DNA from: an uncultured Clostridia bacterium | Lineage (GTDB): Bacteria; Bacillota; Clostridia; TANB77; CAG-508 | NCBI GenBank assembly: GCA_947601495.1 | Contig: CANQGE010000001.1 | Span: 31,731-95,730, forward strand | DNA: 64,000 nt | Reading direction: 5' to 3' | Part shown: positions 9,563 through 44,975 of the stretch, piece after piece | How the letters are laid out: each line of letters begins with the position of its first letter | Numbering within the stretch: the stretch's first letter is position 1 | Notes under the pieces: generated by a model | What the model saw: the letters and a program-made list of their open reading frames with translations, nothing else | What the model was told of the DNA's origin: nothing | The model's database searches: none | Position numbers and translations under genes: made by a program

Positions 9563-9638
<76 letters not shown>

Positions 9639-19495: not shown

Positions 19496-21604
19496 TTATT
19501 CTTCGCTATATAAGTCTTTTCTTGTTAAATTAATTCTGCCTTGGTCGTCTATTTCATAAACTTTAACAGTTACTTCATCTCCAAGTTTTAAGACATCTTC
19601 TACTTTATTTATTCTTTCTTTTGCTATTTTAGAAATGTGAAGTAATCCTTCTTTTCCTCCGCCTAAATCTATAAATGCACCAAATGTAGCTATTCTTGTA
19701 ACTTTTCCTGTATAGATTCCATCAACTTCAATTTCTCTTGTTATTTCTTCTATGATACTTTGAGCAGATCTTGCTTTTTCTATATCATCTGAATAAATAA
19801 ATACAGAACCATCTTCTTCAATATCAATTTTAACTCCTGTTTCTTCAATAATTTTATTAATAACTTTTCCGCCAGAACCAATAACATCTTTAATTTTTTC
19901 TGGATTAATTTGCATATTAATAATTTTTGGAGCATATTTTGAAATTTCTTTTCTAGGTTCAGAAATTTGTGGAAGCATTATTTCATCTAAAATGTATGTC
20001 CTTGCTTTTGCTGTTCTCTCAAATGCTTCTTCAATAATTTCATAGCTTAATCCATCAACTTTTATATCTACTTGAATTGCTGTTATTCCATCTTTTGTTC
20101 CACCAACTTTAAAGTCCATATCGCCAAAGAAATCTTCAATTCCTTGAATATCTGTAATAACAACATATTTGCTTGGATCATTTTCATCAGTAATTAATCC
20201 TGTTGAAATACCTGCAACTGGTTTCTTTATTGGAACACCAGCATCCATTAATGCCAATGTTGATGCACAAATGCTTCCTTGTGATGTAGAACCATTTGAA
20301 CTTAAAATTTCAGATACAACTCTTATTGAATAAGGAAATTCTTCTACACTTGGAAGTACTGGAACTAATGCTTTTTCAGCTAATGCACCATGTCCAATTT
20401 CTCTTCTTCCAGGTCCACGAGAAGCTTTTACTTCTCCAACACTATATCCTGGAAAATTATATTGATGCATATATCTTTTTGATTCTTCTGTATCTAGTCC
20501 ATCTAATAATTGCTCTTCGCTTTTCATTCCTAATGTAACTATTGACATTACTTGTGTTCTTCCTCTATTAAATAAACTACTACCATGAACTCTAGGAATT
20601 AATCCAACTTCACAAGATAATGGTCTTATATCATATATTCCTCTACCATCAACTCTTTTTCCTTCTTCTAGTATTAGTTTTCTAACAGTTTTCTTCTCTA
20701 ATTTATATATAGCATCTGCTATAGCTGTTTTATCTTCTTCAGCTTTTTCTTCACCAAATTTTTCAATATACCAATTTTTAACATCTTCTGAAAGCTTGTC
20801 TATTTTTTCATCTCTTTCTGGTTTATCTGGTGTTTGAACATCTTGTTTCATTCTTTCAGAAAATTCATTTGCTATTACTTCATAAACTTCTTCATTTACA
20901 GCAAAAGATGTATATTCAAATTTTGGTTTTCCTATTTCATCTTTTATTCCTTGTATAAATTCACATACTTTTTTAATTTCTACATGTGCTGTTTTAATTG
21001 CATCTAACATTGTTTTGTTTGGTATTTCATCAGCACCTGCTTCTATCATTGCTATTTTATCTTTAGTTCCTGCAACAGTTAATGTTAATCTACTATTTTT
21101 TCTTTGTTCTTCAGTAGGATTTATAACTATTTGGTCATTAACATATCCAACTGCAACAGCTGCTGTTGGTCCTCCAAATGGTATATCAGATATTGAAAGT
21201 GCAGCAGAAGTTCCTATCATACTGCAAACTTCTGGTGAGCAATCTTGCTCTACTGATAAAACTAAACAGCTAACAACAACATCATTTCTAAAATCTTTTG
21301 GGAACAATGGTCTAATTGGTCTATCTATTGCTCTTGCTGTTAAAATTGCTTTATCTGTTGGTTTTCCTTCTCTTTTTGTAAAGCTTCCAGGTATTTTTCC
21401 AACAGCATATAATCTTTCTTCATAATCTACTGAAAGTGGGAAAAAGTCTATTCCTTCTTTTGGTTCTTTTGAAGCTGTAACATTAACAAGTACAGTTGTT
21501 TCGCCATATCTTACAAGTACGCTTCCATTGGCAAGTCCTGCCATTTTTCCTGTTTCTATAGTAAGTGTTCTTCCTGCTAATTCCATACTATAAGTTTTAA
21601 ACAT
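19496..21604 (-). CDS. pnp: Polyribonucleotide nucleotidyltransferase (PNPase)
   Basis: N-terminus MFKTY...AGRTLTIETGKMAGLANGSVLVRYGETTVL. Two RNase PH domains, a KH domain and a C-terminal S1 domain. 702 aa. Confidence 0.95.
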   Translation of the reverse strand: MFKTYSMELAGRTLTIETGKMAGLANGSVLVRYGETTVLVNVTASKEPKEGIDFFPLSVDYEERLYAVGKIPGSFTKREGKPTDKAILTARAIDRPIRPLFPKDFRNDVVVSCLVLSVEQDCSPEVCSMIGTSAALSISDIPFGGPTAAVAVGYVNDQIVINPTEEQRKNSRLTLTVAGTKDKIAMIEAGADEIPNKTMLDAIKTAHVEIKKVCEFIQGIKDEIGKPKFEYTSFAVNEEVYEVIANEFSERMKQDVQTPDKPERDEKIDKLSEDVKNWYIEKFGEEKAEEDKTAIADAIYKLEKKTVRKLILEEGKRVDGRGIYDIRPLSCEVGLIPRVHGSSLFNRGRTQVMSIVTLGMKSEEQLLDGLDTEESKRYMHQYNFPGYSVGEVKASRGPGRREIGHGALAEKALVPVLPSVEEFPYSIRVVSEILSSNGSTSQGSICASTLALMDAGVPIKKPVAGISTGLITDENDPSKYVVITDIQGIEDFFGDMDFKVGGTKDGITAIQVDIKVDGLSYEIIEEAFERTAKARTYILDEIMLPQISEPRKEISKYAPKIINMQINPEKIKDVIGSGGKVINKIIEETGVKIDIEEDGSVFIYSDDIEKARSAQSIIEEITREIEVDGIYTGKVTRIATFGAFIDLGGGKEGLLHISKIAKERINKVEDVLKLGDEVTVKVYEIDDQGRINLTRKDLYSEE

Positions 21605-21837
21605 TTTACATTCCTCCTATAAATTAATTTTATTTATTTGAAATGTAACCTCTACAATATAGTATTTTGCTTAAAAATAATACATTGTACAAGCTACTCT
21701 TTCAAATAAATAACCATAAGTATTTTACTATATTAACATAAAAAAATCAAGATAATATTTATTTCTAAGTTCTATCATTTGCATTTGTATATTTTTTAAT
21801 TATTAATTTTATTTTTAGCTATTATTATTTAAATAGC

Positions 21838-21991
21838 TATCTAATATAGTTTATATAATTTAAAGGTAACGCGTAAGCGACCAACCGAAGCGAAAGCGAA
21901 GGGCGATTGGAGCAATCTTCATTTTGTTAATTTTAAAAAAAGAAGATTGCGACACCAAGTTACCGATAAATTATATAAACTATATTAGATA
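21838..21991. repeat. Foldback element copy 1: 25-bp perfect outer inverted repeat flanking a 100-nt GC-rich core (21865-21964, GGTAAC...GTTACC)
   Basis: Outer arms tatctaatatagtttatataattta and its exact reverse complement. Core ggtaacgcgtaagcgaccaaccgaagcgaaagcgaagggcgattggagcaatcttc...gaagattgcgacaccaagttacc, which contains an internal stem agcaatcttc/gaagattgc. The same core occurs in reverse orientation at 44553-44652. It lies in the rpsO-pnp intergenic (pnp leader) region. Confidence 0.8.
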
Positions 21992-22039
21992 ATGGTATTT
22001 TAATTAAACAGATATAATAAACTTAAAATAAAATTTTTG

Positions 22040-22072
22040 CTTCAAAATAAAAAACTCGGAACAAATCCGAGC
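22040..22072 (-). terminator. Rho-independent terminator / attenuator after rpsO (ahead of pnp)
   Basis: Minus-strand AAAAGCUCGGAUUUGUUCCGAGUUUUUUAUUUU, with a 6-bp GC-containing stem plus a U-run, 7 nt after the rpsO stop. This is the classical rpsO-pnp arrangement. Confidence 0.7.
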
Positions 22073-22078
22073 TTTTAA

Positions 22079-22342
22079 TTATTTTCTTAAGTTTAATTTT
22101 TTAACTATTTCTCTATATCTGTTAACATCTTTCTTAGCTAAATAGTTTAATAAATTTCTTCTTTTACCAATCATTTTTAATAATCCTCTTCTAGAGTGAT
22201 TATCTTTTTGATGAACTTTTAAGTGTTCTGTTAATTCTGATATTCTTTCTGATAAAAGAGCAATTTGTACTTCTGGTGATCCAGTATCATTTTCTTCTCT
22301 CTTATAAGTATTAATAATTTCTTGTTTTCTTTCTTTAGTCAT
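22079..22342 (-). CDS. rpsO: 30S ribosomal protein S15
   Basis: [68 protein letters not shown] matches S15. The track ORF starts 11 codons earlier, at 22375. I place the start at the internal Met (MTKERKQ) to match the usual S15 length, but either start is possible. Confidence 0.85.
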
Positions 22343-25699: not shown

Positions 25700-25790
25700 A
25701 AAATCCTCCTAAAAAATTTTTTAATTTAATTTTTTATTAACTATATAATATAACTGAATTGCAGCTATCGCTTTTGAAAGTAATTGAGTT

Positions 25791-25866
25791 AGAATTGCTT
25801 AATATATTTTACGGAAAGAGTTCACAAACTTGTGGAAGGGTGCCGTAAAATGTATTTAGCAATTCT
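25791..25866. repeat. Long imperfect palindrome (~76 bp) in the intergenic region upstream of the small membrane-protein gene
   Basis: Outer stem agaattgct/agcaattct and inner stem ttttacgg/ccgtaaaa enclose the palindromic core cacaaacttgtg. It reads the same on both strands. Confidence 0.6.
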
Positions 25867-25967
25867 ACGAAAATTAGCTTGAACAAGATAGCGAAAATGA
25901 AGTTATATTATATAGCTAATAAAGCTTATTTCTAAGTAAAAGTTTTTAAGCAAAAGTATATTTTTAA

Positions 25968-29810: not shown

Positions 29811-29931
29811 TTTAAAATCCTTTCTAAATATTTTTTATTAAATATATTTTTAAATTTATATATAACTTTAAATTTTAATCTTTTAATTAGCAAAATTATA
29901 TTATTCAATTAAGTTTTTCCGTTCCAGCTAA

Positions 29932-30039
29932 TTCTTATAGAAATTCTAAAATTATAAAATGCGCCTCTTTCGCTGCTCAAATCTTCGATTTGCCTTCGAA
30001 CATCCCTCATTTTATAATTTAAGAATTTCTATATAAGAA
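29932..30039. repeat. Foldback element: ~30-bp AT-rich inverted-repeat arms around a 47-nt GC-rich core, in the coaE-queA intergenic region
   Basis: The left arm ttcttatagaaattctaaaattataaaatg and the right arm cattttataatttaagaatttctatataagaa are near-perfect reverse complements. Core cgcctctttcgctgctcaaatcttcgatttgccttcgaacatccctc, with an internal hairpin caaatc-ttc-gatttg. Confidence 0.7.
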
Positions 30040-30090
30040 TTACTCTCAATCCAAAACTTAATTTCATAATATAAATTTTGCTAATTTTAG

Positions 30091-44407: not shown

Positions 44408-44446
44408 AAAAACTCTTAGGAATTATTTTCTTAAGAGTTTTTTTGA
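44408..44446 (+). terminator. Rho-independent terminator after the GT4 gene
   Basis: Perfect 10-bp stem aaaactctta/taagagtttt followed by TTTT. Confidence 0.6.
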
Positions 44447-44527
44447 TAAGAAAAATTGCTTAATATTATTAACATTGCTTAATAATATTATTAAATATTA
44501 ATCAATACTATTAATCAATACTATTGT

Positions 44528-44677
44528 GAATGCTTAAAAAATATAATTTAATAGTAACTTGGTGTCGCAATCTTCTTTTTTATAAATAAACAAAAGGAAG
44601 ATTGCTCCAATCGCCCTCCGCTTATGCTTCGGTTGGTCGCTTACGCGTTACTATTTAATTATATTTTTTAAGCATTC
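44528..44677. repeat. Foldback element copy 2: ~30-bp outer inverted repeat flanking the same 100-nt GC-rich core, in reverse orientation relative to copy 1
   Basis: The outer arm gaatgcttaaaaaatataatttaatagtaac and its complement gttactatttaattatattttttaagcattc flank the core. Apart from a few substitutions, the core is the reverse complement of 21865-21964. Confidence 0.8.
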
Positions 44678-44714
44678 ATAATATTTTTTGCAATTAATTT
44701 TAAAAATTATTTTA

Positions 44715-44975
44715 TTACTTCTTTTTGAGGTAAAGAAAAAGAACTCTTATTTGAGTTCTCCGTAACATTTCTTCTAATATTTTCTCTGCTACTATCAAAG
44801 GTGTTTGTTTTGGATTTGGTATTGCGCTGATTTTCTCCAAGTATTCTATTTGTTTCTCCCTCGGAAGCTTTTGAGCTTTCTCTACCATATTGTCCAAATA
44901 TTCCATTCGTTCCTTTTCTGTTCTCTGAAAACTTGTTAGACAACTGAATATTGTTCCTGATGGGTAATATACCAT
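44715..44975 (-). CDS. Small hypothetical helical protein (86 aa); an alternative-frame ORF overlaps it
   Basis: The ORF has an SD (aaaggggaag) ahead of its ATG. Its sequence is K/E-rich and helical (EKAQKLPREKQIEYLEKISAIPNPKQ). A second ORF, 44707-44943, in another frame is also SD-preceded, so the choice is unresolved. Confidence 0.3.
   Translation of the reverse strand: MVYYPSGTIFSCLTSFQRTEKERMEYLDNMVEKAQKLPREKQIEYLEKISAIPNPKQTPLIVAEKILEEMLRRTQIRVLFLYLKKK

Follow-up and report, generated by a model that had tools for sequence, protein, structure and literature searches.

The spacer between rpsO and pnp in the genome of an uncultured Clostridia bacterium carries a 154-bp foldback sequence with a G+C-rich centre, and its position raises the question of whether it is a structured RNA that regulates pnp or a mobile DNA hairpin that inserted beside it. 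Here we analyse this sequence in a 64,000-nt stretch of contig CANQGE010000001.1 (hereafter the window), in which it occurs twice, and in loci collected from relatives (designated by L-numbers such as L003, L018 and L020). Our comparisons indicate that the foldback repeat is a dispersed family restricted to a small clade of uncultured gut Clostridia. The element is probably a non-autonomous mobile DNA foldback, specific to this clade, recognized via a conserved head and similar in kind to repetitive extragenic palindrome (REP) doublets forming hairpins (REPINs) and to MITEs (miniature transposable elements with inverted repeats).

An inverted-repeat search defined copy 1 as two 33-nt arms, 94% complementary to each other and perfectly paired over the outer 25 bp, on either side of an 88-nt core. 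Copy 2 has arms of 35-37 bp with 1-2 mismatches that are unrelated in sequence to those of copy 1; the two cores lie on opposite strands and differ at 7 aligned positions. The preliminary description of this DNA, made before any database search, had reported a 25-bp perfect inverted repeat around a G+C-rich core at 21838-21991, a second copy with a reversed core and few substitutions, and outer stems that differ in sequence yet pair with themselves, and all of this was borne out. The two copies are made up as follows (window coordinates):

21838-21991, plus strand (the reference orientation, GCGTAAGCGACCAACCGAAGC...): copy 1, whole foldback element of 154 bp, found by inverted-repeat search; covariance-model match at 21861-21969 with 120.2 bits; folds as RNA and as DNA.
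21838-21870, plus strand: left arm of copy 1, with an outer perfect stem of 25 bp, a 2-nt internal loop (AA opposite GA) and a 6-bp inner stem, GGTAAC.
21871-21958, plus strand: conserved G+C-rich core of copy 1, 88 nt.
21871-21878, plus strand: part of the copy 1 core, GCGTAAGC mini-hairpin.
21881-21887 with 21904-21910, plus strand: part of the copy 1 core, helix CCAACCG/CGATTGG enclosing GC-GAAA-GC.
21912-21920 with 21942-21950, plus strand: part of the copy 1 core, hairpin GCAATCTTC/GAAGATTGC with an A+T loop.
21951-21958, plus strand: part of the copy 1 core, single-stranded GACACCAA.
21959-21991, plus strand: right arm of copy 1, the complement of 21838-21870, found by inverted-repeat search.
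About 44527-44678, minus strand (the reference orientation of the core): copy 2, whole foldback element; covariance-model match at 44548-44656 with 121.7 bits.
44558-44646, minus strand: conserved core of copy 2.

Two words of 20-21 nt from the core each occur twice in the window, which none of 100 shuffles reproduced, and the family covariance model finds only copies 1 and 2 in the 64 kb (120 and 122 bits). Folding of both strands, which had been proposed as a check, gave a long hairpin on either one (RNA fold z = -10.9; DNA fold z = -7.4 to -8.9, against shuffled controls).

The extent of the family was determined with a core-derived pattern, scanned against a single genome for each species (185,579 species genomes). 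About 40 sites were found in a single rabbit-gut metagenome-assembled genome (MAG), 'uncultured Clostridia bacterium Lapin-015 bin83' (hereafter Lapin-015), in which we put the number of copies at ~35 or more. Six further Clostridia MAGs from rabbit, goat and other guts (Lapin-032, Lapin-025, RGIG2360, CASTFX, CANDRW and JAAWNJ) contained 1-4 sites each, representing divergent copies. The other matches fell in unrelated phyla, lacked the rest of the element and are attributable to chance. A covariance model built from 42 distinct copies recovered 53 copies from the collected loci (3 of them cut by the locus edge) and 3 weak partial matches, and it revealed no additional divergent copies in the relatives' loci or the window. 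The window genome is close to Lapin-015 (orthologous DNA ~92-94% identical, PNPase 99% identical); 'Candidatus Scatovivens' is among the more distant PNPase relatives. A plasmid or phage fragment was rejected as the source, sensitive blastn searches of PLSDB and INPHARED having given no match. Three pattern scans of IMG/VR returned chance matches only (one was read directly, and 100 of 102 other loci were checked with the covariance model), and a degenerate pattern allowing covariation in the CCAACCG/CGATTGG helix had 0 matches in the JGI metagenomes.

Across the family, the element is ~155-170 bp long. Its head (88-90 nt) is asymmetric, G+C-rich and near-invariant in sequence. Next to it lies a conserved inner stem of 5-6 bp (AGTRAC/GTYACT), which covaries in almost every copy, followed by a further 25-30 bp of A+T-rich outer stem that has almost no conservation between copies and pairs within each copy; beyond ~12 nt from the core the arms have no positional sequence conservation. 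The core's 5' portion, GCGYA(A)GC GACC AACCGAAGC-loop-GCGnAGGGCGATTGGAG, is essentially invariant, in part because the search pattern required it. Covariation is seen in the GCAATCTTC/GAAGATTGC hairpin among distant MAGs (GTAGTCTTC/GAAGACTAC, GTAAT/ATTAC and GCAACCAACC/GGTGGTTGC). Under a hand-specified structure, paired cells amount to 88.6%, compared with 28-40% when the partners are slid, and 17 pairs changed on both sides, giving a score that was reached in 0 of 500 shuffles. Covariation, whose analysis the preliminary description had called for, strongly supports the pairing. The CCAACCG/CGATTGG helix is neither supported nor refuted by this analysis because it never varies. About half of the copies have stem positions 7-8, counted from the core, unpaired between paired neighbours. 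Among arm mismatches, A opposite A on the reference strand is the most frequent, with 29 cases compared with 8 of T opposite T. The internal loop 7-8 bp out is an asymmetric, heritable feature tied to the orientation of the head. In the RGIG2360 copies (L050, L065 and L066), the hairpin of helix P2 reads GTAATCAAGATTAC in some and GTAATCTTGATTAC in another, which are exact reverse complements; this could be a flipped hairpin tip or two point changes.

A rival reading is a family of structured RNAs, in which the head would be a small RNA, a cis-acting RNA or a ribozyme, the long A+U stem would act as a stalk for processing (by RNase III, for example) and the pairing would be under selection as RNA. 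A core of 88 nt that is G+C-rich, highly conserved and built of several helices, within a genome very rich in A+T, is what such RNAs typically look like, and helices P1 and P2 do covary. On the strand opposite the reference, an invariant C.A mismatch becomes a U.G wobble, yielding a continuous 7-bp helix, and P2 is closed by what reads as a tandem G.A motif. Some copies must be transcribed, as there are copies that follow closely on stop codons with no terminator detected, or that occupy an operon spacer. For example, a divergent JAAWNJ copy (L043, 1185-1372) fills the gatC-gatA spacer of a gatCAB operon, whose mRNA carries the strand opposite the reference. Nevertheless, we consider this account unlikely. 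At gathering score, Rfam has no match over the element, its sole hit in the window being the tRNA at 9566-9638 on the minus strand; at E up to 10 over 21700-22120, only a meaningless 17-bit match to a plant miRNA hairpin model covers it, so that the proposed Rfam check produced no relevant family. There is no conserved promoter, both window copies lie beyond terminators, and orientation relative to genes is unbiased. The loop of the second sub-hairpin, described at first as GNRA-like, varies freely across the family (ATAA, ATTA, GTAT, three-base loops and a 10-nt extension). The distribution is patchy, with copy number ranging from 0 to ~40 among near relatives.

The evolution of the arms bears on whether DNA or RNA is the folded molecule. 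Within a copy, the two arms are 93% identical when one is read as the complement of the other. Between copies, arm identity is 68% with gaps, against 66% for shuffled arms, and the outer 26 nt are 42% identical without gaps, against 37% expected from composition; the cores, by comparison, are 92-96% identical. Arm lengths measured to shared landmarks vary between copies while the pairing within each copy is mostly ungapped, and insertions and deletions must therefore be matched between the arms. One pair of sister copies, L020a and L020b, has nearly identical cores and inner arms. Over a 13-bp stretch of their outer stems, 5 substitutions in the left arm are accompanied by 5 exactly complementary substitutions in the right arm, with 0 uncompensated. 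A second pair, L035a and L035b, has one compensated change. Five simultaneous complementary changes are hard to obtain by selection at the RNA level, and independent point mutation followed by selection cannot plausibly account for the complementary runs in such young pairs. Moreover, the arm mismatches that would be G.U in RNA number 19 on one strand and 15 on the other, a symmetry that shows no sign of selection on one transcript, and as DNA the two strands fold equally well. The pattern points to one arm being copied or corrected from the other, in folded DNA or by intramolecular template switching, that is, to templating at the DNA level rather than selection on RNA. Of the two forms of selected secondary structure initially envisaged, an RNA or a DNA cruciform, the pairing itself is strongly backed by covariation, and the manner of change favours DNA.

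The surroundings of copy 1 also speak against a role in pnp control. Copy 1 lies between rpsO (22079-22342, minus strand; Pfam Ribosomal_S15 in matching contigs) and pnp (19496-21604, minus strand). It is located beyond the intrinsic terminator of rpsO (22076-22050, minus strand) and upstream of a promoter-like site for pnp (TTGATT-17-TAAAAT, 21750-21722, minus strand). Because it sits between these two signals, copy 1 is within the rpsO-pnp spacer yet upstream of the pnp leader proper, in which the preliminary description had placed it. The promoter-like site and the next ~130 nt (window 21605-21760) are kept in every relative examined (L075, L077, L082 and L083), and the element is not. The candidate regulatory leader of pnp is this site with its ~130 nt, not the foldback repeat.

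Presence of the element at this site varies over short evolutionary distances, which makes the spacer the clearest evidence for mobility. Where the element is present, as in the window and 7 ENA contigs from its species, the spacer measures 474 nt; in Lapin-015, which has none there, it measures 259 nt, and it also lacks the element in two further relatives (L082 and L083-86). Genomes without it at this site encode PNPases that are 99%, 97% and 94% identical to that of the window. In yet another relative (L077-79), the spacer does carry a copy, in the opposite orientation and with unrelated arms. Copy 1 is an insertion particular to its lineage, without a demonstrated part in pnp control, and the RNA-level regulation of pnp suggested earlier is not upheld, given that the copy is missing from close relatives, upstream of the promoter-like site and reversed in one relative. 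The copy-2 site is occupied in both the window and Lapin-015 (an orthologous copy in L018), and the same spacer in the more distant L087 and L088 measures 148 and 52 nt and has no element. Between strains, copy 1 differs at 3 of 154 nt, which is not distinguishable from ~1.4% in pnp, and an excess divergence of the element was therefore rejected. In L077 (and also in L078 and L079), A+T-rich minisatellites at 1850-2300 inflate the spacer on both sides of the copy, with (ATTATTT)n-like runs and (AAGAATATAAAAATTAATTTAAAG)n, and a 21-nt stretch in the left arm of the L077 copy, TTTATTATAACTGTTTAATTA, matches DNA just outside the window copy (~22010-22030) with one mismatch.

The reversed copy in L077-79 recalls an invertible DNA switch, with the arms as recombination sites and the head as the flipped segment: the element is an asymmetric segment between inverted repeats, and the rpsO-pnp spacers of two related species hold the head in opposite orientations. 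We regard this as very improbable. The recombinase sites would have to be the arms, and it is the arms that lack conservation; the oppositely oriented copies have unrelated arms and are not one copy flipped; no promoter was seen in the head; and all 7 of the contigs with copy 1 share one orientation.

All copies are intergenic. Relative to the flanking genes, 15 are opposed to both, 11 lie between divergent genes, 10 are co-directional and 5 lie between convergent genes, which amounts to no bias. Decay and REARRANGEMENT products are represented by a head-to-tail tandem triplication with a 162-nt period (L028, 2390-2900), in which the first two of the three copies have a mutated 3' core (GATTTTGAGCACCAAA), and by a truncated copy in L042. 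Multiple copies, presence that varies among relatives, intergenic location, unbiased orientation and the triplicated and truncated copies all support the mobile hairpin of MITE or PATE (palindrome-associated transposable element) type that the preliminary description had offered as an alternative. Similar arms are found in only two paralogous pairs, L035a/b (5 kb apart) and L020a/b (3.6 kb apart), one pair direct and the other inverted. In each, the arms are common to both members and the flanking DNA is not. The arms thus travel with the element, contrary to the proposal that it had picked up palindromic flanks, and the closeness of the pairs suggests local hopping. Both pairs (L020 3654-3810 and 7290-7446; L035 2371-2513 and 7491-7654) bracket transporter modules, one comprising an ABC ATPase, a permease-like open reading frame (ORF) and a GntR regulator and the other an MMPL transporter next to a TetR regulator; local hopping or a composite, cassette-like arrangement could lie behind this.

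Several explanations of the arms and of the placement were tried and rejected. Insertion into pre-existing host palindromes was dismissed, there being no 'empty' long A+T palindrome of this type in the window or the loci. Arms as copies of the target site were likewise dismissed: neither arm occurs in the empty Lapin-015 spacer, the inner 12 nt are conserved, and sister copies at different sites share arms. A conserved position beside particular genes in distant MAGs (gatCAB, M18 peptidase) was not upheld, as the copies lie on different sides of the genes or between them, and the number of neighbourhoods shared across distant MAGs equals the chance expectation from sampling.

A mobile origin would be compatible with later recruitment by the host, the repeat serving as a stabilizer or terminator at mRNA 3' ends, a barrier between transcription units or a binding site for a chromosomal protein. 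REP and BIME (bacterial interspersed mosaic element) sequences serve host roles of this sort, namely mRNA 3'-end stabilization and protein binding. The strictly intergenic location, often 10-60 nt from a stop codon, agrees with such recruitment, as do the copy within the gatC-gatA spacer and, in orthologous pairs, ~1-3 changes per ~65 non-loop core positions against a flank divergence of 7-12% (hand counts from few pairs). It is nonetheless improbable in our estimation. At given sites the closest relatives do without a copy, no hairpin is followed by a U-tract, orientation is random despite the asymmetric head, and convergent spacers are not preferred (5 convergent against 11 divergent).

We therefore return to the mobile DNA foldback and to how it might work. 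The element would spread as DNA to new intergenic sites, often close by and in either orientation. An enzyme supplied in trans would recognize the conserved head at the tip of the long stem, most likely on extruded hairpin or cruciform DNA or on single-stranded DNA, and the stem would be needed solely as a stem. The arms would stay complementary through mutual correction while folded, either by mismatch correction within the hairpin or by template switching of the quasi-palindrome type. We are doubtful, without dismissing it, that this amounts to a mode of DNA mobility without prior description, in which an enzyme reads an asymmetric folded head on a hairpin or cruciform and the stem is regenerated, or proofread arm against arm, in each round; a stem so treated would be free to diverge to random level while remaining paired. 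A further possibility is that the head is itself active as folded single-stranded DNA or RNA.

A number of observations weigh against the mobile-element interpretation. Conservation lies in the middle and variation at the ends, opposite to classical MITEs and REPINs, and recognition through the head is an inference. Among orthologous pairs, by hand counts, change is slower in the core than in the flanks, which could reflect a function for the host or gene conversion between copies rather than a requirement of transposition. Copies may be transcribed, and the JAAWNJ copy inside the gatC-gatA spacer must be. The internal loop is kept rather than corrected, so templating is not the whole story. 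Direct repeats bordering the palindrome are absent from 23 well-defined copies, and the empty-site comparison is too rich in insertions and deletions to exclude a short target-site duplication. Neither conserved terminal nucleotides nor a conserved flanking tetranucleotide is visible. The window differs from the empty Lapin-015 spacer by ~215 nt and not by 154, leaving the exact ends of the mobile unit uncertain, and L035a and L035b share ~20 nt past one arm, which bears on the same point. Finally, no transposase or other candidate enzyme was found. The 408 ORFs near copies, in ~350 kb of loci, include no repeated protein family, and the proteins around the window copies and the paired copies are housekeeping proteins or transporters.

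The remainder of the window provides the setting of the two copies. Copy 2 is placed between a glycosyltransferase gene and a small minus-strand ORF, with a terminator at 44761-44738 on the minus strand and a T-run hairpin at 44408-44442 after the plus-strand gene. The small ORF (86 aa, window 44715-44975), which adjoins copy 2, has a terminator of its own and matches nothing in Pfam; the corresponding spacers of L087 and L088 lack it, and Lapin-015 (L018) has other sequence in its place. The 13 window ORFs near the elements that were scanned against Pfam are housekeeping genes only. Of the window ORFs of at least 90 aa, 48 of 50 are on the minus strand, which places the window on one replichore arm; the two copies lie there in opposite orientations.

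Two other foldbacks in the window have no match to the covariance model of the family. The first (25733-25923) is unrelated, with 37-nt outer arms (84% complementary) around a nested 54-nt imperfect palindrome; as it has a 74%-identical copy in Lapin-015 (L003, 1-216), it represents another dispersed family. The other (29925-30045) has 28-nt near-perfect arms that begin TTCTTATAG, a motif also present at the outer ends of ~10 copies of the main family, around a 46-nt G+C-richer core with the hairpin CAAATC-TTCG-GATTTG (DNA fold z = -7.4). No other copy of it was found in the collected loci.

For annotation, these results remove a tempting false lead, in that the hairpin beside pnp is a repeat insertion and not a conserved regulator. 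For the study of mobile elements, they contribute a family found in uncultured gut Clostridia of very high A+T content, with an odd division of labour between a conserved asymmetric head and a self-pairing stem of random identity. The blocks of complementary change in sister copies are direct sequence evidence that the arms are templated on each other in vivo, and hence that the DNA hairpin forms. The family could serve the study of hairpin and cruciform extrusion, quasi-palindrome correction and structure-specific recombination in Firmicutes, and could guide the search for a head-recognizing enzyme. Its copies are usable as strain-level markers in rabbit and ruminant gut metagenomes.

Among known systems, REPINs are the closest in logic. 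They too are short, non-coding, extragenic, high in copy number and mainly vertical within a clade, have a predicted long DNA hairpin, and lack a target-site duplication. In REPINs the two sides of the hairpin commonly carry compensatory changes, and the ability to pair is the key property of their variable part (PMC3116915); the foldback element is likewise a hairpin unit with compensatory changes on both sides. A REPIN, however, consists of two conserved inverted REPs at the ends of a variable spacer, whereas here a single asymmetric 88-nt head is central and the paired flanks vary. REPINs are mobilized by a RAYT or TnpA-REP enzyme (REP-associated tyrosine transposase, of the Y1 type), whose single-copy gene has the repeats on its flanks; none was seen among the proteins scanned from the window and ~0.4 Mb of loci. 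The host here also differs, belonging to a low-G+C clade of Clostridia and not to the Proteobacteria.

Bacterial MITEs such as Correia/NEMIS, RUP and ERIC are similar in size, intergenic location, copy number, patchiness among near relatives, hairpin folding and possible co-transcription with neighbours, and the foldback element is, as they are, small (150-170 bp), non-coding, multi-copy and intergenic. In classical MITEs, however, the terminal inverted repeats are conserved and match a parent insertion sequence (IS), whereas the outer arms here are at 42% against 37% and the collected loci contain no IS or repeated ORF; MITEs also have a fixed target-site duplication, and none was seen here in 23 copies. 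Mobility through recognition of the head would be the mirror image of both REPINs and MITEs. PATEs derived from IS200/IS605, which move by a single-strand 'peel and paste' mechanism, share with the foldback element the lack of a target-site duplication and of transposase-binding terminal inverted repeats, and recognition of a folded hairpin is plausible in both. Their insertion site lies 3' of a fixed tetra- or pentanucleotide and their orientation is related to replication, whereas the foldback element has no conserved flanking nucleotides and, in tandem gene contexts, is co-oriented in 10 cases and opposed in 15.

Integron attC sites are also recombination substrates defined by how they fold, in which the stem sequence varies and unpaired bases are conserved. 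Their conserved R and L boxes are outermost, around a variable centre, and the sites occur in cassette arrays beside intI, whereas the foldback element has a conserved centre and its copies are scattered among housekeeping genes. In quasi-palindrome template switching, one arm is copied from the other and an imperfect inverted repeat is made perfect. This would yield clustered, exactly complementary changes like those between L020a and L020b, but it is a general mutational process rather than an element family and leaves the conserved head and the spread of copies unexplained. The likeness to the PNPase autoregulatory hairpin of the pnp leader fails, with the element upstream of the promoter-like site at 21750-21722 and absent in Lapin-015, L082 and L083-86. 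The element belongs with the bacterial foldbacks of MITE and REPIN kind; the family is ordinary in kind, and what is unusual is its inverted architecture and the templating of its arms.

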